Source: a virus (taxonomy: Duplodnaviria > Heunggongvirae > Uroviricota > Caudoviricetes). From it: a stretch of 42,935 nucleotides of DNA. The translations under genes were made by a program, and so were the position numbers. The stretch's first letter is position 1; every line of letters begins with the position of its first letter. Shown one piece after another: positions 795 through 42,244 of this stretch. The notes beneath the pieces are model-generated. The model worked only from the letters and a program-made list of their open reading frames with translations, was not told the origin of the DNA and did not search any database. The stretch lies in the IMG/VR virus record IMGVR_UViG_2529292907_000021. One strand, 5' to 3'.

Positions 795-1295
<501 letters not shown>

Positions 1296-1337
1296 GTTCA
1301 CAGATAAAACACTCTCCAGGAAACCCGGGGCGGTTCA

Positions 1338-1554
1338 CATTGGAAATTGGCGTGGTCACATTCCTGTTTCGCCCTACCCACAACCCAACGATATCAAGTT
1401 GCTCACCCTGCGCAGAGTCCAGATCGAACTTGCGAAGCATGTCAGATGTTACGCCGGAGATGTCAGTGAAAGGTCGGGTTATCAGGTCAATGTGTTGCTG
1501 GAAGAGTGGTTTAGTGACGTGATAGTTCGTTATCAGCTCAGTGTATTTACTCAT
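1338..1554 (-). pseudogene. Phage tail protein (gene following baseplate J, Mu gp48/DUF2313-like position), N-terminal ~72 codons only; truncated by the IS insertion
   Basis: ORF 1102..1554 starts MSKYTELITNYHV... directly after the baseplate J gene with a 4-nt overlap; beyond 1337 the frame runs antisense through the IS, so only the first ~72 residues are phage-derived. Confidence 0.5.
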
Positions 1555-3111: not shown

Positions 3112-3210
3112 CTACCACCAGCGAACCTGGCCTATGAAATAACCGAGAGCAGCCACAATAGCCACCATCCAGATCATGATGAATTTCCAGCTTGGTAATT
3201 GCTTAATCAT
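3112..3210 (-). CDS. Small hydrophobic protein, 32 aa (MIKQLPSWKFIMIWMVAIVAALGYFIGQVRWW), start chosen at internal ATG with RBS
   Basis: GGAG Shine-Dalgarno 9 nt upstream of the ATG at 3210; single predicted transmembrane helix; sits between spike and W-like genes. The longer ORF (3112..3309) would start inside a terminator hairpin, so the internal start is preferred. Confidence 0.3.
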   Translation of the reverse strand: MIKQLPSWKFIMIWMVAIVAALGYFIGQVRWW

Positions 3211-3287
3211 TAATCGCAACTCCCGTATTAGTTTGCTAAAATCAAGCACTGATTCTCCCTTGCTCTCATCAAGGTGTAGAAAGTAGA

Positions 3288-3330
3288 AAGCCCCGAAGTG
3301 CGTCAACACTCGGGGCTTTGTTTTATCCCG
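3288..3330 (+). terminator. Intrinsic terminator oriented for plus-strand transcription (antisense to the tail operon)
   Basis: Hairpin AAAGCCCCGAAGTGCGTCAACACTCGGGGCTTT followed by TTTGTTTTAT on the plus strand; on the minus strand the stem is followed by a poor T-run. Confidence 0.55.
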
Positions 3331-3393: not shown

Positions 3394-4146
3394 TTAACTC
3401 ACACTTCCTGATTTCCCCGTTCCTGGCTGTACGTCGTTATGGGTGTGACTATCATCAATGGTTTTGTTGTTCGATTTCAGCGAACCGAAAAACTCAATGG
3501 CGCCAGTAATTTTCGCTGCGGTTCCGCTAGAAAGACTACCGACCATGCCCCCCATCCACGTTAACAGCCCGCTGATCGTCACCTTCTCCGAGAAGGTAGA
3601 TTCAGGGGAAATCACGTCGAAACCGCCTGGCGCGACCAGTTTGATTTTCTTCGTGTCAGGATTAATTTCGAAGTAGGTACTGCCGTCATCGCTGCGGAAC
3701 TGCGCTGCAGTGGTGCTGATGCCGCTGATTTTGCGCGTCTGAGACTGCGGGCCTACGATGGCGAAGGCATCACTCAGGTCATGCTGGCGCGGGTCTACCG
3801 CCTCCTGTACGCCACCGTTCTGCCACCAGAAATCAATGCAGCGATCGGAGAACACCAGCAGGCACTCATCGCCGGCTTTAACCGGGAAAGTCAGCGTGCA
3901 CCCACCGCCCCGCGGGAATACCACCGGCACATCAGGAAGGATCGGAATGGCCTCGGAGGTAGCCTTACCGTCATCACCTACCTTTTGGCCGTAGATGGCA
4001 GGCTGAACGGTGCAGGTCACTGTTTCGGGGTCGAACGACTGGATGATTCCGGGCATGGCAACGCGCAGGCCGGTGAAAATAGACAGTTTCTGTGCATCAA
4101 ACGTCTGCTGCTCGCTGCCGTCCTGCGCGCGTGGTGATACTGGCAT
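3394..4146 (-). CDS. Baseplate spike / assembly protein V-like
   Basis: 250-aa ORF with AGGAG RBS, between hub-like and W-like genes; N-terminal region resembles gpV/Mu gp45-type spike proteins by eye. Confidence 0.5.
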   Translation of the reverse strand: MPVSPRAQDGSEQQTFDAQKLSIFTGLRVAMPGIIQSFDPETVTCTVQPAIYGQKVGDDGKATSEAIPILPDVPVVFPRGGGCTLTFPVKAGDECLLVFSDRCIDFWWQNGGVQEAVDPRQHDLSDAFAIVGPQSQTRKISGISTTAAQFRSDDGSTYFEINPDTKKIKLVAPGGFDVISPESTFSEKVTISGLLTWMGGMVGSLSSGTAAKITGAIEFFGSLKSNNKTIDDSHTHNDVQPGTGKSGSVS

Positions 4147-4161
4147 GAAGATCTCCTGGCA

Positions 4162-4192
4162 ATAAAAAACCCGCCGGAGCGGGTTTGTTTAA
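4162..4192 (-). terminator. Intrinsic terminator downstream of the moron pair, upstream of the spike gene
   Basis: Minus-strand reading: AAACCCGCTCCGGCGGGTTTTTTATT (stem CCCGC/GCGGG plus T7 run), located between the stop at 4195 and the spike RBS. Confidence 0.6.
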
Positions 4193-4194
4193 AT

Positions 4195-4566
4195 TTATTT
4201 AGCACTTGGTGGCGGAACTATAGTTTCAGCCCAGCAGCGACACTTACCGCCAGGGCAGCATTTTCCCTCACCAGGCAGGCCAGTTTTGGGCGGTCTTTTC
4301 CATCTGAACACTTTCCCATTGTTCTTAGCGCAAGCATTACAACATCCGCTATCCCCTGCAGTATGCCACCGGAACTTAGTTGCCCCGATGTGTTCTGCGC
4401 GAAGCATATTGTATCTCGCATGTTCAGCAACGCTGCGCTTAATTCGGTTAAACTCAAAATTCCTAACAAACTGGTCATCACGTTTCTTTTTGCGGTTTTT
4501 TACAAAGCCACGAACAATCAGAAACAAAACTACGAGGATGACAGCAATTCCTGGCTCCATGGTCAT
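4195..4566 (-). CDS. Small membrane-anchored protein with a Cys-rich domain homologous to the C-terminus of MuF-type head morphogenesis proteins
   Basis: N-terminal hydrophobic helix (IAVILVVLFLIVRGFV) then ...FRWHTAGDSGCCNACAKNNGKVFRWKRPP...GKCCPGGKCRCWAETIVPPP, which aligns by eye with the C-terminus of the head morphogenesis protein at 17293..18045 (...YWWRIEGAGTRDSHYKMRNKFVRWDNPP...GCLPNCKCWPEIQVPPP). Confidence 0.5.
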   Translation of the reverse strand: MTMEPGIAVILVVLFLIVRGFVKNRKKKRDDQFVRNFEFNRIKRSVAEHARYNMLRAEHIGATKFRWHTAGDSGCCNACAKNNGKVFRWKRPPKTGLPGEGKCCPGGKCRCWAETIVPPPSAK

Positions 4567-4919
4567 TCAACCTTCATGCAGTCGTAAGTACCAAAAATAC
4601 GAGGCTCGCTCATGTTTTGGCGTACTGCTTCAGCATTGAGAATTCCTTTCCCATTGCGTTTTATGTAATCGAGGCCATACCGCTGTCCCGTGTTTTCATT
4701 CAGGACGATCCATTGCATTTTTATGTTCTCGTAATCACCCTCTTTTTTGAGAAAAGTTACCTTCTGACCATCAGGCTTAGCGCCGTTTATCCTCGGGTAT
4801 CCGTCATTCTCGGATGAGGTTGAAAACACAAATGGTCCGCACTTCATGTAGTCAGAATTTTCCGCCAGTGAAGCAAAGCTAACCAATGTTAAAGAAGCCA
4901 TCAAAAGTAGTTTTTTCAT
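4563..4919 (-). CDS. Secreted/periplasmic protein with cleavable signal peptide, unknown function
   Basis: N-terminus MKKLLLMASLTLVSFASLA is a classic Sec signal peptide; the gene overlaps both neighbours by 4 nt (translational coupling); visibly AT-rich relative to flanking tail genes. Confidence 0.5.
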   Translation of the reverse strand: MKKLLLMASLTLVSFASLAENSDYMKCGPFVFSTSSENDGYPRINGAKPDGQKVTFLKKEGDYENIKMQWIVLNENTGQRYGLDYIKRNGKGILNAEAVRQNMSEPRIFGTYDCMKVE

Positions 4920-5983
4920 TGTGGAGCCGTTCGCTGTAGGGCCGAATTCGACTGCAAATCACGTGCCCCTCGAGCCATACACATGAGATCCATATACCAT
5001 GGATTTCCCCTCGTATCACCGGTGTAGCTTATTGACTGGACAATGTAGACGCCATCAGTGGCCACACTGGCGGGCTGCGCTATAGTGCCGCCAAGTGAAA
5101 GGTTACCATCATTGCTCGACTCTGTGATTCTTGCCTGTGATCTTTGGATCTCATCGTTCGGCAGTTGGGTGCGATAGACAGATGCCTGGTCAAGCTGAAT
5201 TAAGCCGTTCACCCTGATGTTGGGGTTAATCAGGCAGCGAACATTGACGCCAGCACCCATGGTCTGCTGCGGCATCCCTATGAGCCCGGTAGCGCTGCTC
5301 AGCACAATGGCCTCGTGTAGATATTTATCTTCAGGAACCATCTGCGCCTGACCGTCCACAAACTGCCAGTTGGCGTTGCATTGCGCCGCAAGATTGCTCA
5401 TGTAATCACGGGTCATACCGTAGAACACCCGGCCCCGTGGCATCACGCGGTCCGGAAACTCTCCGGTAACACCCTGGGTTATACCGAACGGGGAGAAATC
5501 TCTCATCAGCACCGAGTGAACATCTGACAGCTTATACCCGGCAGACAGGCTGCCGGATGAAACGGCCTCGTTAAACGCCTGGTGCCCATCGATGGACTGA
5601 ATCAGGGTAAAAATGTCGGTGGGGTTATCTCGCCCGGTGATTGTGAAGCGGATCTCACCGTTGAAAATCCCCCCGAAGTTCTGGCCTAGCGTCTGCCCAA
5701 CCTGATCTGGCGACACATCCGTTACCTGTCCTACCTGGCTTTCAGATACCGGCGGTGCCAGCCCGTCATACCCGGCAATAATAGTGATCCGAGAGAACTC
5801 TGAGCCCGTTATACGGCTCATGGTGTCGCGGTTGAGGTTGTAAATCTTTAGCGTTGCGACTCGCGGCCACATGGAGTTGAACCAGTCGATCGCAAACGTC
5901 ACCTTAAAATCAGTCAGGGAAATACCCTGACCGGAATCATCCAGCAGGCGCAGTTCAAAGTGACGCCTCCAGTTTACGGTCAT
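4916..5983 (-). CDS. Baseplate hub-like tail protein (Mu P / P2 gpD-like position)
   Basis: 355-aa ORF two genes downstream of the tape measure in a contractile-tail module; assignment mainly positional. Confidence 0.45.
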   Translation of the reverse strand: MTVNWRRHFELRLLDDSGQGISLTDFKVTFAIDWFNSMWPRVATLKIYNLNRDTMSRITGSEFSRITIIAGYDGLAPPVSESQVGQVTDVSPDQVGQTLGQNFGGIFNGEIRFTITGRDNPTDIFTLIQSIDGHQAFNEAVSSGSLSAGYKLSDVHSVLMRDFSPFGITQGVTGEFPDRVMPRGRVFYGMTRDYMSNLAAQCNANWQFVDGQAQMVPEDKYLHEAIVLSSATGLIGMPQQTMGAGVNVRCLINPNIRVNGLIQLDQASVYRTQLPNDEIQRSQARITESSNDGNLSLGGTIAQPASVATDGVYIVQSISYTGDTRGNPWYMDLMCMARGARDLQSNSALQRTAPQ

Positions 5984-17292: not shown

Positions 17293-18045
17293 CTATTTAC
17301 GCGGAGGCGGCACTTGAATCTCCGGCCAGCATTTGCAGTTCGGCAGGCATCCGGCATGCCCGGTCATTTCGTCCAGAGTGGGTGGGTTATCCCAGCGCAC
17401 GAACTTATTCCTCATTTTGTAGTGGGAATCGCGGGTACCAGCGCCTTCAATGCGCCACCAGTAACCTTCTGAGCCAATCGACTCGGCGCGCGCCTGGGTG
17501 AGTGCTGTGGTAGCCCTGCCGATTTCGGTGCGGGCGATCATCTTCGCGCGGCTCTCCGCTACGTCGCCGGACTCCATAATCATCCGGTAGAGCGCGTCGG
17601 GGCGTTCACCGTTGATGACAGCTTCCATTGCACGCGCCTGGATGTCACGGACGCGATCGGCAGCCTCCAGCGGCAGAGACTTAATCAGCTGCACCTGGCG
17701 GGACACTATGTCCTGTGCCACGAACCCCACCGGCGTATTGCCGACGACATCTCGCAGCCCCTCGGAGATATCCTGCGATACCGAGCGCCACTGGCTCCAC
17801 TCCTCCTGCTCAACCTGCAGGAACATGCGTTTAGCGACCCGGTCGGCCCAGTCGTCAATCAGCAGGGAGTAATCCATCAGCCGGGCGTTAACCTGCTCGG
17901 CGCTCGCTTCCGAACCATCGTAGGAACCAGTTACTATCGCGCCGCACTGACGCGCTATCTCCTGTAGGCTTTTCTGATACTGGCGCTCCGATTTGCGGCG
18001 GAGGTTCGGTTTCAGATTCAGCCTCCTCCCATTCTGCTTTGGCAT
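17293..18045 (-). CDS. Phage head morphogenesis protein (MuF / SPP1 gp7 family); start uncertain
   Basis: C-terminal region ...MIARTEIGRATTALTQARAESIG...FVRWDNPP...GCLPNCKCWPEIQVPPP matches the MuF-type C-terminal motif; the ORF extends to 18138 but overlaps the portal gene, so the internal ATG at 18045 is used. Confidence 0.6.
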   Translation of the reverse strand: MPKQNGRRLNLKPNLRRKSERQYQKSLQEIARQCGAIVTGSYDGSEASAEQVNARLMDYSLLIDDWADRVAKRMFLQVEQEEWSQWRSVSQDISEGLRDVVGNTPVGFVAQDIVSRQVQLIKSLPLEAADRVRDIQARAMEAVINGERPDALYRMIMESGDVAESRAKMIARTEIGRATTALTQARAESIGSEGYWWRIEGAGTRDSHYKMRNKFVRWDNPPTLDEMTGHAGCLPNCKCWPEIQVPPPRK

Positions 18046-19402
18046 CTTCAATATCCTTGTCGGTGATAGAGCCGCCGATGCCGATGATGTCGGACAGGTT
18101 GCGGAGGTCGTTAAGCGCAGCGTGTTGAGGCATACCAATATCGCGTACGGCGGTCGCCAGGGCGGTGGCCACGTTACTCGCCATCGTCGCCCGGTCGGTG
18201 TCCGACATCTCCCAGAGCTTGTTGAACTCGAAGGTGAAGTCTTCCGGTAGTGGTTGGCCGAACAGTGATCGCCATGTGATATCCAGCAGCCAGCGGATGT
18301 GGCGGCGCAGGCGGCGTTCCTGTAGCGAGTTAACGCGGCTGTAGTAGTTCTCTAGGTCACCGTCACCAGTGCTGAATCCAGATGGCGATTGCCCGAACAG
18401 GCGTACCAGCGGGATACCGGTTGCTCCGGACACCTGCTCAGCAAAGCGCAGGATGACGTCGGCTATCCCCGCGAACGAGTAGCTGTGGGTCTGGAATTCA
18501 TCGTTTTTATCCATCAGGGTCATGCCCTCGATGGTCTGAAATTCACGGATCATGTCCATATGCTTCATCAACCCCTCATGCATGGGGTTGCCAGGGCCGA
18601 GCGCAAGAATTTTGCGCAGCCCCTCAATGCTGTATGTACGAAGGTGAGCTTTGTGGATCAGCTGCGTGGTACCGACGGTCGCCGTATCGAAAGCCTGAAT
18701 GCGCTCGAAGATACGCTCGACGACAGACATACCCCAGCCGTTCTCGGTCTGCGCCTGCTGGAACGGTAACGATTCACCCTCCATGCGGATAATGCGACTG
18801 TGGTGAATCTTCCAGGGTGGAATCCCCTGCTGGTTGGTCACCACCTTGTAATACTTCGGTTTGCCGAACTCCGGGCCATAATCGGTCACCAGATCGTAAT
18901 AGCTCGGGTTGACCTGCCATCGGTCGAGGCACATCACCCCTTTAAACTGACCCTCTTTGATGCGGTCGAGCTTAAGCGGGGTGGACATGTCCTGCCCTTC
19001 CAGCAGCACCACCAGCAACGCGCCGCCATAAAGCCTTGACCACTTCAGGGTATCGTTGAGGCCGTCCCAGATCGCGATATCGTCCCAGAAGGTTTCGAAC
19101 TTACCTTTCTGGCCCGGCTTTAATTTCGAGCTGATGTTAATGCCCTTACGGGTCATGTCATCAGCCATCGCGTCTACGCCAGCACCCACCAGAAACGATG
19201 ACCGGTAGGCGAATTCCAGTTGTACACGGTTGCGCGAGATATAGCCTGGCTGGTAACTCCCGCCGCTCTGGATATTGGCAGTGTAACCACCAAGTTTGGC
19301 AGCGAAATTGTTATACCCGTCAGCAGTCGCAACGGGCTTTTTAGCGCCGTTATGGCGGTTCTTGCGGGACATAATTAACCTCTTTGACCAAGTGCGGCCC
19401 AC
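17888..19402 (-). CDS. Portal protein
   Basis: 504-aa ORF immediately downstream of the terminase large subunit and upstream of the MuF-like gene; acidic C-terminal tail. Confidence 0.6.
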
Positions 19403-20583
19403 GATCCAAGTCCGTCAGCGCTTGTGATGTATCCATCAAGCGAATAGCGCACGGCGTCCCAAAGGTGGTTGTGCTTATCCACGACAACCGGTAGCACTTC
19501 GCCGGTCATGCGGTCTGTTTTATAGGAGTAGAGGCGCGCCTCATCGACCATGTGCTTGCAGCGCTCATGGATAATGATCTCTTCAAACCCTTTCAGGTAT
19601 GTGATTCCGTCCTCAACGCTGCCAGGCCACTTCGTAGCCCCGTCGATAACGAAGCCCTGACGTGACAAGTAGCTGATTGTTTCAGGTCGGCTGCAGTCAC
19701 CGTGGATGGGCCACTTTCTGGACTCCGGGATAGAGTCATAGAACGAAGCCATTTCATCTAGTTCGACGCCAACACCGTAGGCCTCGTACTCGATATAAAG
19801 CCTGGTGCCAATGATGAAGCAGCGAACCAGTGTTGACGGGTCATTAGCAAAACCGAAGTCAGCGCCATAGAACAAACGATCGGCACTTTGCCACAAGTCG
19901 TCAGCGAACGCTTCAACCCGGTACTTGCCGGAGAAAATGACAGCTTCACTGAGCGCTTTCGGCAGGCCAAGCCAGATATGTTCGTAGGCTTCGAAGTCGA
20001 TACGCTTGCAGTACTCCATCTCGTGCCGGAGCACGTCAGGAAAGAAGGCGTTATCAACGTAATTGACGCAGGTGATGATTGCGCCGCCATCAGGGGGATC
20101 AGCGCGGTGCCGTTCCATCATGGCGTAGGTCGGGTCGGTAGCCTCACGCGGGTTGAATGACACCCACACTTCCGATTTATTGGCGCGAACGGTCGGGCCA
20201 AGGATATCCCAACTATCCTGCGATACAGTCTGCGCCTCTTCCACCCAGCATATTTTGATGCCGTGCATCGACTTAATGCTCTGGATGTTGTTACGTAGGC
20301 CTTTGAAGGTAAAGCGCGTGCCGTTGCTGCCCTCTATCTCGTTATTCTTGACCTTGTAGAAGTGCGCTAGGCCAAGCGAGTGGATCTCCGCATCCAGTAG
20401 CGCAAGTACCGAATCGTTGATGGAGTTCTGGAACTCACGAGCGCAGAGGATGATCATCGGCTCGATAGCGCCCAACAATACCAGCGCGCGGGCAATCTCT
20501 ACCGACTTGCCACCACCGCGACCGCCATACGTCCAGCGCCAGCGAACAGAGCCTATCGGTGCGTCGTACAGCGTACACATCAC
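19375..20583 (-). CDS. Terminase large subunit
   Basis: N-terminal Walker A-like motif (YGGRGGGKS) followed by a nuclease-type C-terminal region; 402 aa; precedes the portal gene. Confidence 0.7.
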
Positions 20584-22345: not shown

Positions 22346-22538
22346 TGCTGGCCTTTTTGGTTACTTCGACGCGGCGTTCTACGGCTGCCTTGGTGGCTGC
22401 GGCATTATCGTCGGTGCGCTGTTTATCTGATTTGGCTTCGGCTTTTTCGCGTCCACGCATGCTGCCCAGGCCAAACGCACCCAGCACAAGCATTACGATC
22501 AATCCGATTGCCGCCAGAATGGCTTTCAGTTTCGTCAT
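22260..22538 (-). CDS. Inner-membrane spanin Rz-like (i-spanin)
   Basis: 92-aa ORF immediately downstream of the endolysin; N-terminal TM helix followed by a charged helical region; overlapped by the lipoprotein ORF. Confidence 0.5.
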   Translation of the reverse strand: MTKLKAILAAIGLIVMLVLGAFGLGSMRGREKAEAKSDKQRTDDNAAATKAAVERRVEVTKKASNVQQTVSHMPDDDVDRELRESWKRPGCR

Positions 22539-23080
22539 AGGCTCACACGCTCCCGTACCCAGCCATACACGAATGACTTGTTAGCCGGGCGCTGCTCTGC
22601 CAGCTCGAGATAGCGCTGCCCTTGGCTGCAATTCAGTGCACGGAGCAATACTGATTCCCCTTCGCTCCCGCGTTTAGCCAGGAACGATTTCAGGGCGCTG
22701 ATGCTACGAGGGCCAATCTGGCCGTCGGCGATTAAGTCTGGGTAAAGTTTCTGCTGGTCGTTGAAGACATTCAGCCAACGCTGGAACCATTTCACCTGCA
22801 CTGATGGCCCCATGTTCACGCCGGTGTCGCAGAGTTCAGCGGCGATGGCCGGAGACACGGTAGCTACCTGGTCGAAGCGTGGACCATACCAGTAATCAGC
22901 CTCGAGTATTTCGAGTGCCTGCTGGCGTGTCAGGTTGCGCATATCACCGGTAAAGCCATGGGCGCGTGCCGTTGCCTGAGTGATTCCCCAGTTCGTCGGG
23001 CCGCCCTTGTCGTTCGGGTGATTAACGTATCCACCCTCTTTGCCGAGGATGCGGTTGAAGATATCGTCTTTGGTCATCAT
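22535..23080 (-). CDS. Endolysin, glycoside hydrolase family 108 with C-terminal peptidoglycan-binding domain
   Basis: N-terminal motif ILGKEGGYVNHPNDKGGPTNWGIT is the GH108 signature; followed by a PG-binding-like domain; located between holin-like and spanin genes. Confidence 0.8.
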   Translation of the reverse strand: MMTKDDIFNRILGKEGGYVNHPNDKGGPTNWGITQATARAHGFTGDMRNLTRQQALEILEADYWYGPRFDQVATVSPAIAAELCDTGVNMGPSVQVKWFQRWLNVFNDQQKLYPDLIADGQIGPRSISALKSFLAKRGSEGESVLLRALNCSQGQRYLELAEQRPANKSFVYGWVRERVSL

Positions 23081-36098: not shown

Positions 36099-38858
36099 AT
36101 GGAATTCTTTAATGTGGTTAAAGCCACTCAGAAATCCGGAAAACAAGATGCAGTGGTCTGGTTCACTGCGAAAACCGAGGCTCGCGCCAACCTGCAACTG
36201 GACGTTGCACTGGAAGATGCTGGCATCGAAATGGGTCGCGGTAAGGACTACGCCAAACCGATTCGCACAGATTTTCCTGTTGTTGATGACCTGCCAGAAG
36301 AAGGCGAAGTTGATTTCACATGGTGCGAACGTTACGAACTGGCCGAAGACCAGCGCACCTGGAATGTTAAGCAACAGGCTGAAGATGAGTCTGTCGACGA
36401 CGCCGATACTGAAGACAGCACCGCAGAAGAATCTCAGCAGTCAGAGCAGCCGAACCTGATCGTCGTTGCCACCCTGCCATTCCGTCAGCGCGTACTGGCT
36501 CAGTTCATCGGTGATGGTGAATATCTCTATCACGTCGACGCTGGGCAGAAAAACGAGATTGTCCGCCTTGAGATGGACACTGATAACGCGTACGCCCAAA
36601 ACCTGCTGCTGGCTGCTGAGAATGTGGAAGCATTCAAAAAAGCCATTGAGCACGATATCCATAAAGTCGTGAATGCCGTTAAGAAAGCCTTCCCTGTCGA
36701 CGGTAAAAAACCGGAACTGGCAACAGTTATCCAGTTCCTGACGGTGTGGTTCAACACTGATTACATCGACCGTGGCATCCTGGCGCGCGAATGGACCGCC
36801 GGTAACCGCATCAGCAATGTTCAGCGCACCGATTCCGGTACCAACGCCGACGGCGGATATGTCACTGACCGTGGCGAAAATGCTTACCACACGCTGGATA
36901 CTCTGGATTTAGAGATTGCCTGCGCCCTGCTCCCAATGGACTTTAACCATCTTGAAATCCTGGGCAGCATCCACCGCCGCGCCAAAGAGATAGTGGCCAA
37001 CAAAGAACAACCATGGAAATCATGGAGCAGCATCCTGCGCAATCAGCCTGGCGTTCTGTCGGTAAACCGCGCTGCCATCTTCAATCTGGTGCGCATCGCG
37101 CCGGAAAATATTCACCTGACGCCAGTTGCACATCTGGAGTTCGTTAACCAGACCATGACAGCTGAGTTCAATTCAGCAACTGAGTTGCTGCCGTTGCCAG
37201 TAGCTGGCGCGCAGGAACCAAACAGTCAGGATCAACCTCGAGTTGAGAATCTTGGCGCTGGAATTTTCTCCATAGAAAGCCTGATGGGTGATCAACAACC
37301 AAAAACAGATGACCGTTCACCACTTAATGAGGAAACCACCAGCGATGTGCAGATGGAAGAAACTGTCAGTGATGAAGAACAGGCTGGTAATGAAGTGCAG
37401 CCAGGCGAAAGCAGTCTGGAAACTGGTGAAGAGTCACATACCGGCCAGCAAGCCGATGTAAACCAGAATGCGGACTCTGTCGTCCAAAATAGCGATTCTG
37501 TAAACCAAGCCGAACCAGTTGCTGCGCAAACCGAGCCAGAAGCGAAATCTGACGAACCGGCTGTTGTGTATCCCGCTTACTTCGAGCCTGGGCGCTATGA
37601 AGGTCTGCCGAACGAGGTTTATCACGCAGCGAACGGGATCAGCAGCACGCAGGTAAAAGATGCCCGCGTCAGCCTGATGTACTTCAACGCACGCCACGTC
37701 GCCAAAACGATCACCAAAGAGCGTTCTCCAGTTCTGGACATGGGTAACCTGGTGCATGGACTGGCGTTGCAGCCAGAGCAGCTTGATGAAGAGTTCAGCG
37801 TTGAACCGATGATCCCGGAAGGCGCGTTCACCACGACGGCAACAATCCGCGCGTTTATCGATGAGTACAACGCAGGTCTGCCAGAGCAATTGAGCGCCGA
37901 CGACATAAAGACATTGCTCGAGGAATACAACGCCACTCTGCCTGCTCAGGTACCACTGGGTGGTTCAGTCGAGGAAACTGGCCAGAGCTACATGTCGCTG
38001 CCAGAAGAGTACCAGCGGATCGAAGCGGACCAGAAGCAGACCGCAGCGGCGATGAAAGCCTGCATCAAGGAATACAACGCCAATCTGCCTGCCCAGGTGA
38101 AAACCAGTGGTAGCCGTGATGCCTTACTCGAGCAGCTGGCAATCATCAATCCTGACCTGGTGGCGCAGGAAGCGCAGAAACCGCAACCGCTGAAAGTGTC
38201 CGGTACCAAAGCGGATCTGATTCAGACCGTGAAGTCTGTGAAACCAGACGCCGTCTTTGCCGACGAACTGCTGGATGCGTGGCGCGAGAATCCGCAAGGG
38301 AAAGTACTGGTCACCCGCCAGCAACTGAGCACCGCACTGGCCATTCAGAAAGCCCTGCTACAGCACCCAACTGCCGGGATGCTGCTTCAGTACCCGAGTC
38401 GCGCCGTTGAGGTCAGCTATTTTGGCTTTGACGATGAAACCGGTCTGGAAGTCCGCGTTCGTCCAGACCTTGAGATCGACCTGGACGGAGTGCGCATCGG
38501 TGCCGACCTGAAAACCATCAGCATGTGGAACATTAAGCAGGAAGGCCTGCGCGCCAAGCTGCACCGGGAAATCATCGACCGTGACTACCATCTGAGCGCC
38601 GCCATGTATTGCGAGACCGCAGCACTGGACCAGTTCTTCTGGATTTTCGTCAACAAGGACGAGAACTACCACTGGATCGCCATCATCGAGGCATCCGCCG
38701 AACTGCTGGAGCTGGGCATGCTTGAGTACCGCAAATCAATGCGTGCTATCGCTACCGGCTTTGACACTGGCGAATGGCCAGCGCCCATCACAGCTGATTA
38801 TACCGACGAACTGAACGACTTCGACCTGCGCCGCCTTGAAGCGCTGCGTCTGGCTTAA
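36099..38858 (+). CDS. RecE-like exonuclease VIII (long acidic N-terminal region plus C-terminal PD-(D/E)xK nuclease domain)
   Basis: 919 aa; C-terminal ~300 aa contain a PD-(D/E)xK-like arrangement (...RPDLEIDLDG...GADLKT...); immediately upstream of a RecT-family gene, as in Rac recE-recT. Confidence 0.55.
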   Translation: MEFFNVVKATQKSGKQDAVVWFTAKTEARANLQLDVALEDAGIEMGRGKDYAKPIRTDFPVVDDLPEEGEVDFTWCERYELAEDQRTWNVKQQAEDESVDDADTEDSTAEESQQSEQPNLIVVATLPFRQRVLAQFIGDGEYLYHVDAGQKNEIVRLEMDTDNAYAQNLLLAAENVEAFKKAIEHDIHKVVNAVKKAFPVDGKKPELATVIQFLTVWFNTDYIDRGILAREWTAGNRISNVQRTDSGTNADGGYVTDRGENAYHTLDTLDLEIACALLPMDFNHLEILGSIHRRAKEIVANKEQPWKSWSSILRNQPGVLSVNRAAIFNLVRIAPENIHLTPVAHLEFVNQTMTAEFNSATELLPLPVAGAQEPNSQDQPRVENLGAGIFSIESLMGDQQPKTDDRSPLNEETTSDVQMEETVSDEEQAGNEVQPGESSLETGEESHTGQQADVNQNADSVVQNSDSVNQAEPVAAQTEPEAKSDEPAVVYPAYFEPGRYEGLPNEVYHAANGISSTQVKDARVSLMYFNARHVAKTITKERSPVLDMGNLVHGLALQPEQLDEEFSVEPMIPEGAFTTTATIRAFIDEYNAGLPEQLSADDIKTLLEEYNATLPAQVPLGGSVEETGQSYMSLPEEYQRIEADQKQTAAAMKACIKEYNANLPAQVKTSGSRDALLEQLAIINPDLVAQEAQKPQPLKVSGTKADLIQTVKSVKPDAVFADELLDAWRENPQGKVLVTRQQLSTALAIQKALLQHPTAGMLLQYPSRAVEVSYFGFDDETGLEVRVRPDLEIDLDGVRIGADLKTISMWNIKQEGLRAKLHREIIDRDYHLSAAMYCETAALDQFFWIFVNKDENYHWIAIIEASAELLELGMLEYRKSMRAIATGFDTGEWPAPITADYTDELNDFDLRRLEALRLA

Positions 38859-38872
38859 TGGAGGATTTGACC

Positions 38873-39913
38873 ATGCAAAATACCAACATCATTACTACTG
38901 AGCAGGCACCAAACACCATTTCCGCCAGCAATGCCGTATTCAACGTGCAGGCGCTCGGGCAGCTCACCTCTTTTGCTGAATTGATGGCGCAGTCTGCCGT
39001 CACCGTACCTAAACACCTGGCGGGGAAACCCGCTGACTGTATGGCGATCGTCATGCAGGCTATGCAGTGGGGAATGAACCCATATGCAGTTGCCCAGAAA
39101 ACGCATCTGGTCAACGGCGTTCTGGGTTACGAAGCGCAACTGGTCAACGCAGTAATCTCCAGCTCCAGCGCCATCGTGGGCCGCTTCCATTACGAATACG
39201 GCGGTGACTGGGAGAAGATCGCCGGCAAAAAAGACGGCCGCGATGAATTAGGACTGTTTATACGGGTTGGCGCCGTACTGCGCGGAGAAGAAGAAATCAC
39301 CTGGGGTGAGCCAATCTACCTGGCTGATATCACCACACGTAACTCTCCATTGTGGAAAACAGCACCGAAGCAGCAGATCGCTTATCTGGCAGTGAAGTAC
39401 TGGGCGCGCTTGTACTGCCCAGAAGTCATCCTTGGCGTCTACAGCCCAGATGAAGTTGAACCGCGCACAGAGAAGGAGATTAACCCGGCGCCGCAACGCG
39501 TTAGCCTGGCGGATATCTCAGGTGACACCGTCACAACCACGCAGAGCGCACAGGAATCATCGGTAAATATCGGCTCACCGGCCGATGATTTCCGCGAACG
39601 CATCGATGCTGCACAGGATGTTGATAGCGCCAAAGCACTGCGCGCTGATATCGAAAGCGCGAAGGTCACGCTCGGTTCTGCCCTGTTCACCGAGCTGAAG
39701 AACAAGGCAGTTAAGCGCTATTACCTGGTTGATTCACGTAACAAGGTTGAAGCCGCGATCAACTCTCTACCGTCTCCGGATGAACCGGGCGCAGCAGAAC
39801 GATTCGCCGAAGTTGAGCGCGTGCTGGCAACCAATAAGCGTCACATGGGCGACGAGCTGCACGATCGGTTCAGCATCACCCTGGCGGATATGAAACCGGA
39901 ATACGTGGCCTAA
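38873..39913 (+). CDS. RecT/Red-beta family single-strand annealing protein
   Basis: Start at the ATG preceded by GGAGGA; ~346 aa; follows the RecE-like gene; conserved basic/aromatic core (QQIAYLAVKYWARLYCPEVILG) compatible with the RecT family. Confidence 0.5.
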   Translation: MQNTNIITTEQAPNTISASNAVFNVQALGQLTSFAELMAQSAVTVPKHLAGKPADCMAIVMQAMQWGMNPYAVAQKTHLVNGVLGYEAQLVNAVISSSSAIVGRFHYEYGGDWEKIAGKKDGRDELGLFIRVGAVLRGEEEITWGEPIYLADITTRNSPLWKTAPKQQIAYLAVKYWARLYCPEVILGVYSPDEVEPRTEKEINPAPQRVSLADISGDTVTTTQSAQESSVNIGSPADDFRERIDAAQDVDSAKALRADIESAKVTLGSALFTELKNKAVKRYYLVDSRNKVEAAINSLPSPDEPGAAERFAEVERVLATNKRHMGDELHDRFSITLADMKPEYVA

Positions 39914-40917: not shown

Positions 40918-41190
40918 ATGGCCAAGCTTCTTAATCTGCAGGAATGGGCGAATTCGACTTATTCAACCCCGCCGTCTCTTTCAACACTTCGCCGCTGGGC
41001 GCGGGAGGGGCGCATTTACCCTGCTCCGGAACTTCACGGAAAAGAATATAAGGTTCAGCCTGACGCCATCTATGTGGATCCGAGCAAAAAGAACCTTCGT
41101 CCCAAATCAAAACGCTTAGCGCTGCCAACTGGCGGCACTCTACTGGAGAGACTGACTCATGGCGAAAAGGCCAGTACGTTACGACGCTAA
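40918..41190 (+). CDS. xis: Excisionase (lambda Xis-like)
   Basis: N-terminus MAKLLNLQEWANSTYSTPPSLSTLRRWAREGRIYPAPELHGKEYKV closely parallels lambda Xis (MYLTLQEWNARQRRPRSLETVRRWVRECRIFPPPVKDGREY); overlaps the int start. Confidence 0.65.
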   Translation: MAKLLNLQEWANSTYSTPPSLSTLRRWAREGRIYPAPELHGKEYKVQPDAIYVDPSKKNLRPKSKRLALPTGGTLLERLTHGEKASTLRR

Positions 41191-42244
41191 CCTGCCCCGT
41201 AACCTGACCTATCGTAAAAGAGACAGGCTTTATAGCTGGCGAAACCCGATTACCGGTCAAGAATTATCTCTTGGCCGGATCGACAGAAAGGACGCCATTT
41301 CTCAGGCCATCGAGGCCAACAACTACATCGACCAAAATTACCTTCCGTCAGCGCTGCTTGACCGCATAAAGGAAACACCAACATTTACGGTGAAAGCGTG
41401 GCTCGAGCGCTACGAAGTAATTCTTGAGCGAAGAGAATTGAAGCCCAACACGATGAAGGTCAGGCGCAATCAGATCGCCACTATCAGTGATGAATTCGGA
41501 CGTATGCCGCTATCGGCGGTCAGCACAAAGGACGTATCTACTTTCCTGGAGAGTTACATACTCTGCGATAAGAAGAGCATGGCCTCTGGCCTGCGATCGG
41601 TATTGTTGGATATTTTCAGGGAGGCGATCGTCGAGGGACATATTGAAAGGAACCCGGCAGAGCCGACAAGAACGCCGACACCAAAAGTGAAGCGTGAGCG
41701 TCTTTTGCTCGAGCAGTTTGAGATAATAAGGGATGCCGCAACTGCTCATTCTGGATGGGCTGCAAATGCATGTGACCTGGCGCTGGTCACCGGGCAGAGA
41801 AGAGAGGACGTATCGCTGTTCAGATTCAGCGATATCAGGGATGGAAGATTGTTTGTCACACAGGAAAAGACAGGTCACAAATTGGCGTTGCCACTTGATT
41901 TGCGACTGGACTCTGCTGATTTGGTATTGCAGGATGTTATCGACCGTTGTCGTAAAAACAACCCGTCAGACTTCATGCTTTATTCTGCGGTAAGGCGTGG
42001 TGGCCGGAAGCCAGGTCCGTTAACTCCGGACGGAATCACCCAAGCATTTTCTGATATCAGGGATTCTACAGAGTTAAAGTTTGGCCCCAACCCTCCCCCG
42101 TTCCATGAGATCAGGAGCTTGGCGAGCAGGCTCTATGAAAGGGAGCGCGGAGAGGATTTCGCACAGAGACTGCTGGGGCATAAAAATTTAACAATGACCA
42201 AAAAATACCTGGACGCACGCGGTGCAGAATATGTTATGGTTTAG
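41159..42244 (+). CDS. int: Tyrosine integrase (lambda Int-like)
   Basis: 361 aa; N-terminal arm-binding region and a C-terminal catalytic region with ...HEIRSLASRLYERERGEDFAQRLLGHKNLTMTKKYLDARG matching lambda Int (...HELRSLSARLYEKQ...AQHLLGHKSDTMASQYRDDRG). Confidence 0.85.
   Translation: MAKRPVRYDANLPRNLTYRKRDRLYSWRNPITGQELSLGRIDRKDAISQAIEANNYIDQNYLPSALLDRIKETPTFTVKAWLERYEVILERRELKPNTMKVRRNQIATISDEFGRMPLSAVSTKDVSTFLESYILCDKKSMASGLRSVLLDIFREAIVEGHIERNPAEPTRTPTPKVKRERLLLEQFEIIRDAATAHSGWAANACDLALVTGQRREDVSLFRFSDIRDGRLFVTQEKTGHKLALPLDLRLDSADLVLQDVIDRCRKNNPSDFMLYSAVRRGGRKPGPLTPDGITQAFSDIRDSTELKFGPNPPPFHEIRSLASRLYERERGEDFAQRLLGHKNLTMTKKYLDARGAEYVMV

Follow-up and report, generated by a model that had tools for sequence, protein, structure and literature searches.

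A two-gene accessory insertion between the baseplate hub and spike genes of a temperate enterobacterial phage, including a membrane-anchored MuF-core protein with a putative role in phage conflict

What are two AT-rich genes, one of which codes for a membrane-anchored relative of the MuF head proteins, doing inside the baseplate operon of a tailed phage that already has a MuF gene next to its portal gene? The question is raised by the virus record IMGVR_UViG_2529292907_000021 (Caudoviricetes), whose whole stretch of 42,935 nucleotides is hereafter called the window. A first-pass annotation made from the sequence alone had described, at positions 4195-4919, the genes for a Sec-secreted protein of 118 residues and for a 123-residue protein with a transmembrane (TM) helix fused to a MuF-like domain, which we call the mini-MuF. 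Our analyses indicate that the pair very probably constitutes accessory cargo in a conserved variable slot, i.e., a prophage hotspot. The combined statement that it is such cargo and that the mini-MuF acts as an inner-membrane-tethered, anti-phage mimic of MuF proteins is proposed tentatively, and we consider its chances to fall somewhat short of even.

A conserved slot with variable cargo

The slot and its two edges are on the minus strand. The baseplate hub gene (4916-5983; phrog_196 'baseplate hub', E = 2.8e-84; PF22759, E217_GP41) represents the upstream edge and is followed by the gene of the secreted protein (4563-4919), which is the first, semi-conserved occupant, and by the mini-MuF gene (4195-4566). 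The product of the latter is made up of an N-terminal TM helix, a basic stretch and a Cys-rich MuF core of ~65 residues harbouring C76, C79, C109 and C111. A 48-bp spacer separates the mini-MuF gene from the baseplate spike gene (3394-4146; PF18352, E = 8e-43), the first backbone gene past the slot, whose RefSeq relatives are annotated as membrane-puncturing spike proteins. An intrinsic-terminator hairpin with its T-tract (4160-4186) constitutes the conserved downstream edge, directly 5' of the spike ribosome-binding site. Thus, the placement of two genes between hub and spike is borne out by these profile matches. Their translational coupling is confirmed as well, with ATGA stop/start overlaps both at the junction of the hub gene with the secreted-protein gene and at that of the secreted-protein gene with the mini-MuF gene. 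As noted in the first-pass annotation, the pair is richer in AT than its flanks, with a GC (guanine plus cytosine) content of 45.1% compared with 54.1% for the hub and 56.0% for the spike genes. The GC content at third codon positions is 0.44-0.46 in the pair and 0.60-0.65 in most neighbouring tail genes. Among all 725-bp segments of the window the pair is at the 12th percentile, which is clearly lower but not extreme. The plus-strand open reading frames (ORFs) that overlap the pair have no homologues and no domain matches, and we treated them as antisense shadows.

We collected related loci from E. coli genomes, from contigs encoding homologues, from one genome per species and from isolated phages. 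Hub homologues at 47-97% identity were found in loci L001 to L023. Across ~26 related loci, the distance between hub and spike genes varies from 427 to 2592 bp, and the contents of the gap are unrelated. In the closest relative (L001), the hub, spike, plug and sheath initiator proteins are 94-97% identical to those of the window and the flanks are 95% identical, but a single gene coding for a 230-residue lipoprotein replaces both the 118-residue- and the 123-residue-protein genes. The presence/absence comparison among related prophages that had been suggested for this pair thus has a clear outcome. Because of this replacement and of the varied slot contents, the two genes are dispensable accessory genes, and their position is a hotspot for cargo of the conflict type. 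After the secreted-protein gene, the slot contains nothing in L010. Elsewhere it contains EACC1 on the opposite strand (L002), PD-Lambda-1/T5orf172 (L016), PDC-S42 (L007), a TM-Mrr nuclease (L011), Phd with Fic/Doc (L014) or pairs of uncharacterised proteins (L006, L009, L013), and the remaining related loci harbour other uncharacterised genes. The PADLOC matches among this sister-locus cargo are PD-Lambda-1, PDC-S42 and the Mrr-type protein. The hub and spike genes are adjacent with zero gap in L028, a Xanthobacter prophage. The general layout therefore consists of the hub gene, usually a secreted-protein gene, variable cargo, the conserved terminator hairpin and the spike gene, and its carriers are temperate enterobacterial phages with a contractile tail of the E217/SEN34/Mulock type. 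A DNA search of 5,426 complete E. coli genomes found the exact pair in none of them, the secreted-protein gene in ~9 and a Mulock-type mini-MuF gene in 3.

The pairs of L006, L009 and L013 form a two-gene cassette present in three genera, in which the gene of a ~250-273-residue protein precedes that of a ~131-137-residue protein. Neither protein of the L006 cassette has a Pfam or PADLOC match, and we regard the cassette as a candidate uncharacterised conflict system.

Morons, as defined by Juhala, Hendrix and colleagues, are present or absent among close relatives, deviate in base composition and have their own promoter and their own terminator. The pair shares the first two of these properties, being present or absent at one position among close relatives and deviating in base composition. 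As for the terminator, which is a strong one, the hairpin lies at 4186..4167 of the minus strand and reads AAACCCGC-TCCG-GCGGGTTT, followed by TTTTATT; our terminator scan gave an 8-bp stem including 5 GC pairs and a 4-nt loop. We compared the 110-nt segments that precede the spike start codon in 23 related loci and found the same hairpin (AACCCGC, loop, GCGGGTTTTTTAT) in 23/23, directly before the spike ribosome-binding site and irrespective of the upstream cargo. It is also present in Klebsiella phage Mulock. Furthermore, a megablast search of the region against phage records yielded a sole match of 37 bp, in an unrelated uncultured phage record, and this match covers the hairpin. The terminator is thus a property of the slot and not of the two-gene pair, contrary to the initial description of it as the pair's own, since the same hairpin is found in 23/23 relatives with other cargo.

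The phage encodes a Q antiterminator (PF06323, 24439-25128), which makes it plausible that a conserved terminator within the late operon serves as an insulator. The hairpin would stop transcripts begun in the cargo or transcripts of the prophage state, and the Q-modified late polymerase would read through it. In the search for promoters, we also considered a TATACT-containing match located ~120 nt inside the hub gene of many relatives. We rejected it, as it occupies one fixed position of the hub coding sequence and is degenerate in the window; for the former reason, its recurrence probably reflects the coding conservation of the hub.

The N-terminus of the 118-residue protein, MKKLLLMASLTLVSFASLA|E, is organised like a Sec signal, with n, h and c regions and an A-x-A site, and the homologues of the protein retain the signal together with two invariant Cys residues (C27 and C114), which confirms its early identification as a Sec-signal protein. 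The protein is predicted to be exported to the periplasm, where it would fold as a small disulfide-stapled beta-barrel. A homologue at 38-93% identity is found directly after the hub in ~19/26 distinct related loci, and only a remnant of the gene persists in L013, L020 and SEN34. Six related loci have no homologue, four of which (L001, L008, L012 and L021) harbour other secreted proteins or lipoproteins instead. The 118-residue protein would appear to be a long-standing, fast-evolving resident of the slot. The gene directly after the hub nearly always codes for an exported product, which suggests that the occupant of this first position has a periplasmic or outer-membrane role.

A lipoprotein family of 230-379 residues takes the place of the 118-residue protein in some relatives (3802-4494 in L001, and in the hub-spike gaps of L012 and L013). 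These lipoproteins have a common C-terminal domain (FVTRxP...VYxKxGxY..., DIPDxTK, AARLAKMH, MVTVAVPC) with no Pfam match.

A clade of short, stand-alone MuF-core proteins

In the mini-MuF of the window, a hydrophobic helix at residues ~5-22 is followed by KNRKKKRDD. This layout is common to all close homologues, and a K/R-rich stretch after the TM helix is found in all of them. By the positive-inside rule, the protein is predicted to have an N-out/C-in topology, with all but the anchor in the cytoplasm, and only ~4 residues would be exposed to the periplasm. The 118- and 123-residue products are therefore predicted to reside on opposite sides of the inner membrane. The search with the Phage_Mu_F profile proposed in the first-pass annotation yielded a significant match. 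The C-terminal 65 residues correspond to PF04233 with E = 7e-7 and 30.4 bits, for a gathering score of 29.6, over profile positions 45-107 of 112, i.e., only the C-terminal 60% of the domain. Together with the TM helix, this match upholds the description of a membrane-anchored MuF-core protein. The protein also matches phrog_324 (head morphogenesis, E = 7e-10), and its score with NCBIfam TIGR01641 is 23.9, below the cutoff of 39.65. BLASTP aligns it with the resident 281-residue MuF protein at 38% identity over 66 residues (E = 1e-11). As judged from these profile searches and this alignment, its similarity to MuF proteins is far beyond chance and the homology is clear.

The AlphaFold (AF2) model of the protein is of high confidence (pLDDT of 89.5) and consists of a long helix at residues 5-39, a second one at 46-59 and a small beta unit bearing the Cys residues. 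Across 48 family members, two of the Cys residues (C109 and C111) do not vary and two others (C76 and C79) hardly do, which suggests the presence of a four-Cys metal site, probably Zn-binding, in the MuF core. That core ends 3 residues short of the C-terminus, and no toxin domain follows it.

A profile built from the four closest sequences was used to search 1.84 billion representative proteins (E <= 1e-3), which yielded 986 relatives including canonical MuF proteins. The best ~110 of these 986 are nearly all 78-200 residues long, with the MuF core at the very C-terminus. A second search revealed a score gap between the short proteins, at 116-157 bits, and the canonical MuF proteins of 213-340 residues, which score 80 bits at most. 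Sequence alignments showed that the short forms retain only the last helix and the core, with CxxC in place of RxxH and a CCxxGxC insertion before CRC. The CxxC+CxC combination is present in 115/162 short forms (71%), while 78 of the 89 long, canonical forms (88%) have xxxH+CxC. The CxxC motif is therefore a trait at the level of the family, and not one that the head protein of this phage has lost, as had been said.

In a neighbour-joining tree of the core, one clade groups 148 of the 162 short forms with 6 long ones. It includes the 123-residue protein and excludes the resident MuF protein, and 179 of 247 family members are closer to the former than the resident MuF protein is. We thus reject a recent duplication of the resident MuF gene as the origin of the mini-MuF, based on the tree and the identity ranks, and with it the proposal that the two are paralogs of that kind. 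Among short forms with a complete N-terminus, 34/148 (23%) harbour an N-terminal TM helix and 35/148 (24%) a Trp-containing amphipathic start of the MxWLxxLF type, compared with 1/89 canonical forms in each case. Since about half of the short forms have such starts, as opposed to 1% each in the canonical ones, membrane association appears to be a theme of this clade. The median number of residues after the MuF core is 1 in the short forms. The mini-MuFs constitute a distinct, horizontally mobile clade of stand-alone proteins, each a single-gene module, and the clade comprises at least hundreds of 50%-identity clusters.

Because the full architecture and the portal-adjacent position are lacking and the TIGR01641 cutoff is not reached, we classify the mini-MuF as a divergent, stand-alone offshoot and not as a MuF head protein. 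The members of the clade are called 'phage minor head protein', 'structural protein' or 'hypothetical' in databases, and the first two of these labels are probably misleading or wrong.

Mini-MuF genes are found in the hub-spike slot of Enterobacter (L004), Salmonella (L005), Pantoea (L017), Hafnia (L020) and E. coli (L023 and L036), as well as in that of Klebsiella phage Mulock, in which gp21 follows gp20, the homologue of the 118-residue protein. In a distant metagenomic phage (L026/27), the gene occupies the same interval on the strand opposite to the tail genes. In the Xanthobacter prophage L028, it is part of an island with HicAB, Ant and Arc located between the Dit-like and plug genes. 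In L029/30, a lambdoid phage whose portal gene has a full MuF gene beside it, the mini-MuF gene lies between Q and the lysis genes. L033 carries it close to the integrase of a P4-like element, L024/25 within an integrase/PIN islet, and L031 in an ordinary chromosomal context. Such positions are those where phage accessory genes accumulate. In a survey of 611 phages, Jamet et al. (2017) reported 614 muf genes, 85% of which are beside a portal or terminase gene (PMC5576092), so the early remark that a second copy of the domain inside the tail module is unusual stands.

No conserved partner gene of the mini-MuFs was found, and the L028 and L029 neighbours are unrelated. No Pfam family was significant among the mini-MuF neighbours, the sole match, AlpA, being below cutoff. 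In L026/27, L028, L029/30, L024/25, L031 and L033, the mini-MuF occurs without the 118-residue protein, and conversely the latter is present without a mini-MuF in ~10 loci. In L020, only a 27-residue remnant of the 118-residue protein remains beside the mini-MuF. Each gene being found without the other, the notion of a toxin/immunity-like or obligate pair is not supported.

A putative role in phage conflict and its alternatives

Canonical MuF proteins provide the starting point for a mechanism. SPP1 gp7 binds strongly to the portal, is present in few copies inside the capsid and supports the start of infection (PMC6316719). Its counterpart gp44 of 80alpha is ejected with the DNA and protects the DNA ends, and the portal crown is needed for its incorporation (PMC7290940, PMC12889711). 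Because such proteins bind the portal, travel with the DNA and protect its ends, the mini-MuF might act as their mimic. Its N-terminal helix would anchor it in the inner membrane, and the positive stretch after the helix would place the ~65-residue core in the cytoplasm. The tethered core would mimic the portal-associated MuF ejection module and bind a MuF partner from a competing phage, which could be its portal crown, its MuF protein or the end of its DNA as it enters. Such binding would block productive entry or assembly, resulting in superinfection exclusion or assembly interference, with the tethered core acting as a dominant-negative MuF mimic. This mimicry of MuF proteins against competing phages is a possibility that we would not call probable. 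Of the functions considered at the outset, an exclusion decoy or a packaged effector, the putative decoy fits best with the genomic contexts.

A wider reading is less likely still. It holds that the mini-MuFs represent a new, widespread class of single-gene anti-phage proteins acting by virion-protein mimicry, and that the hub-spike slot is an unrecognised defence hotspot whose terminator insulates the tail operon from cargo transcription. Here, the tethered core would trap a component of MuF-dependent invaders, namely their portal crown, their MuF protein once ejected or their DNA end, and thereby abort genome entry or head maturation.

Several observations weigh against an anti-phage role or against MuF mimicry as its basis. 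Neither the 118- nor the 123-residue protein matches a PADLOC-DB v2 model at E <= 0.01. A consensus scan found no sigma-70-like promoter upstream of the pair on the coding strand, which is weak evidence either way, and both genes are translationally coupled to the hub gene and hence to the late operon. For these two reasons, the pair may be made in this phage only late in the lytic cycle, and not from the prophage. No solved structure resembles the model of the 123-residue protein, which thus gives no structural clue to an activity. The DNA-binding part of 80alpha gp44 is its basic C-terminal tail, not clearly the PF04233 core. The core of the mini-MuF is about as similar to the resident MuF protein (40%) as to canonical MuF proteins at large (median of 42%). 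A mimic of portal or MuF components would be expected to hit the resident phage too, so that an escape route would be needed. Lastly, the identities of mini-MuF and hub proteins loosely co-vary across loci, which is compatible with a long-standing, phage-beneficial role other than defence.

Some of these observations fit with the mini-MuF being instead a minimal ejection protein targeted to the capsid, although we consider this improbable. Its core would have retained portal binding, so that a few copies would enter the heads of the resident phage or of a helper and leave with the DNA on ejection. Once delivered, the hydrophobic or amphipathic segment at the N-terminus would insert into the inner membrane of the recipient cell, aiding DNA entry or acting on the new host. 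MuF proteins do reach the procapsid interior via the portal and serve as effector carriers (PMC6316719, PMC5576092, PMC5512222). The gene has the orientation of the late structural genes, to which it is translationally coupled, no separate promoter was found, and Mulock, a plaque-forming phage, carries it. The 123-residue protein, however, lacks the helical N-terminal region of ~150-200 residues of canonical MuF proteins, and a co-translationally inserted TM anchor would hinder its loading into cytoplasmic procapsids. Moreover, the gene is dispensable in the 95%-identical relative; in L026/27 and L028 it runs opposite to the structural genes, and in L024 and L031 it is not part of a phage. An equally improbable alternative is that of a counter-defence or host-modulating gene, whose Zn-binding core would bind a factor of the host or of a rival element, for instance an immune sensor that recognises portal or MuF-type proteins, and the beneficiary would be the phage, not the host. 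Prophage hotspots contain both defence and anti-defence genes, the gene stands at the start of the lambdoid late transcript in L029/30, and its coupling to the late operon in the window would suit a role in the phage's own lytic cycle. Nevertheless, known anti-defence families gave no match, and the locations in a P4-like element and in integrase islets suit defence cargo at least equally.

The stop/start overlap of the two genes and the recurrent placement of the secreted-protein gene ahead of the TM mini-MuF gene, seen in the window, L004, L005, L017, L023, Mulock and three E. coli genomes might indicate that the periplasmic and membrane-anchored proteins cooperate across the inner membrane as a toxin/immunity or sensor/effector pair. 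We hold this to be highly improbable. The secreted protein follows the hub in ~19/26 loci whatever the cargo, so that co-occurrence in 7/9 slot cases is close to the chance expectation, and the mini-MuF is found without it in six other contexts. Besides, only ~4 residues of the mini-MuF would be exposed to the periplasm, and as its MuF core ends at the C-terminus, there is no toxin domain. Least probable of all, to the point of being nearly discounted, is that the two proteins serve in the baseplate itself, as structural or assembly parts whose genes are placed at their site of action, as their location between the hub and spike genes and the RefSeq name 'structural protein' of one homologue might lead one to think. 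Tail assembly takes place in the cytoplasm, yet one product has a cleavable Sec signal and the other a TM anchor. Furthermore, the pair is swapped for a lipoprotein gene in the 95%-identical relative and for defence genes elsewhere, and L028 does without any gap between hub and spike. In sum, the data establish the anatomy and accessory status of the pair, the layout of the slot, and the clade membership and distribution of the mini-MuF; its topology, Zn binding, time of expression and anti-phage mimicry are inferred.

Phage background and comparison with known systems

The canonical MuF head protein of 281 residues is encoded at 17293-18138 on the minus strand (PF04233, 50.4 bits, profile positions 2-109). 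Its gene is downstream of the portal gene (PF06381, 17888-19402), which it overlaps as listed, and the large terminase gene lies at 19375-20583. Further genes around hub and spike code for the plug (PF22479), Dit-like (PF21821), sheath initiator and baseplate J proteins. What looks like a second, smaller accessory slot is located one gene on, between the spike and sheath initiator genes. The AT-rich ORF found there (3112-3309, minus strand, 44.9% GC) codes for a protein with a TM helix, 65 residues long as listed, whose last 45 residues match phrog_6632; homologues are present in L005 and SEN34 (gp23), with no match in other related loci. Of the 218-residue L001 orthologue, only residues 1-73 are matched by the baseplate wedge-1 gene (1102-1554, minus strand), which then breaks off. 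Its plus-strand neighbours code for an integrase core of the insertion-sequence type (rve, 849-1295) and for part of a group II intron reverse transcriptase/maturase (37-732). It therefore appears that the other wedge and tail-fibre genes of the prophage are gone, and the prophage is probably defective. The 20619-42935 region is lambdoid in its regulation and recombination genes, with Q, NinG, the replication protein O, RecE/RecT-like functions (36099-39913) and an integrase (41159-42244). A GH108 endolysin is encoded at 22535-23080. The genome is thus a mosaic that combines lambdoid regulation and recombination with a contractile tail of the E217/SEN34 type. Two related prophages (L004 and L005) adjoin lepA.

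These data define a cargo slot in a common family of enterobacterial temperate myophages, which includes relatives of Salmonella phage SEN34 and Klebsiella phage Mulock as well as many prophages. As sister loci carry known defence genes, the slot can be mined for new ones. If the proposed mimicry is true, it would add the portal/MuF pathway to the short list of targets of defences that interfere with entry or assembly, and the mini-MuFs would open a genetic route to the function of the MuF domain itself, which is poorly understood. Defence hotspots and accessory prophage genes are well known as a category. What is new here, apparently, is this slot and the mini-MuF clade, as the literature searched, whose journal coverage was incomplete, contained no description of short MuF-core proteins or of a hub-spike hotspot.

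Compared with the Phage_Mu_F/SPP1 gp7/80alpha gp44 family (PF04233, TIGR01641), the mini-MuF has in common the ~65-residue core, with a helix ending in RAxxxG and the YxWRxxGD, NxGKxFxW, PPxxGHPG and CRC(Y/W)AE motifs. It differs from the canonical proteins by the absence of the N-terminal helical region and of the R-A-x-x-I-A-R-T-E motif, by CxxC instead of RxxH, by the additional CCxxGxC insertion, by its membrane anchor and by its separate clade. Its gene lies ~13 kb from the portal gene, even though the phage already has a portal-adjacent MuF gene. Of note, Iyer et al. (2017) applied the term 'MuF-C' to the PBECR domain of Mu gp30, which is unrelated to the mini-MuF, and the label 'MuF C-terminal domain' is therefore ambiguous. 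The MuF polymorphic toxins (Jamet et al. 2017) similarly combine a MuF-family domain with a conflict-related setting in temperate phages. However, they consist of a full-length MuF region and a C-terminal toxin, and their genes adjoin the portal gene and precede one for immunity, whereas in the mini-MuF the core is the C-terminus, with neither a toxin domain nor an immunity gene.

A moron in the tail operon of HK97 codes for gp15, a small exclusion protein of the inner membrane (PMC3594210). Like the mini-MuF, it is a small, single-pass inner-membrane protein encoded by a dispensable gene of deviating GC content in the tail cluster of a temperate phage with lambdoid regulation, and a terminator follows the gene. 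The two are nevertheless unrelated in sequence, with no YebO-type Pfam match for the mini-MuF, and gp15, which lacks a MuF-like or Cys-rich domain, is expressed from a promoter of its own. Our Pfam, PHROGs, NCBIfam and PADLOC scans revealed no family of characterised exclusion proteins, such as HK97 gp15/YebO-like proteins or P22 SieA. Tab of Pseudomonas phage JBD26, an 83-residue moron product encoded in the late operon, blocks the assembly of invading phages (PMC10884400). Tab resembles the mini-MuF in being a small moron inside the late structural operon of a prophage. For Tab and the Tai systems, which defend by interfering with virion assembly, the logic of targeting a virion component of the invader is like the one proposed here (PMC10884400, PMC11364771). 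The sequences are unrelated, however, and Tab targets the tape-measure/tail pathway and has an anti-Tab partner, while the target suspected here is the portal/MuF pathway and no self-protection partner of the mini-MuF was identified.

The slot itself is best compared with the P2 old/tin and P4 psu-int hotspots, which are likewise fixed sites between conserved phage genes where unrelated defence, toxin-antitoxin and uncharacterised genes swap among close relatives (PMC9122126). Those hotspots belong to another phage family and occupy another position, whereas the slot described here lies inside the baseplate operon and is edged by a conserved terminator hairpin.

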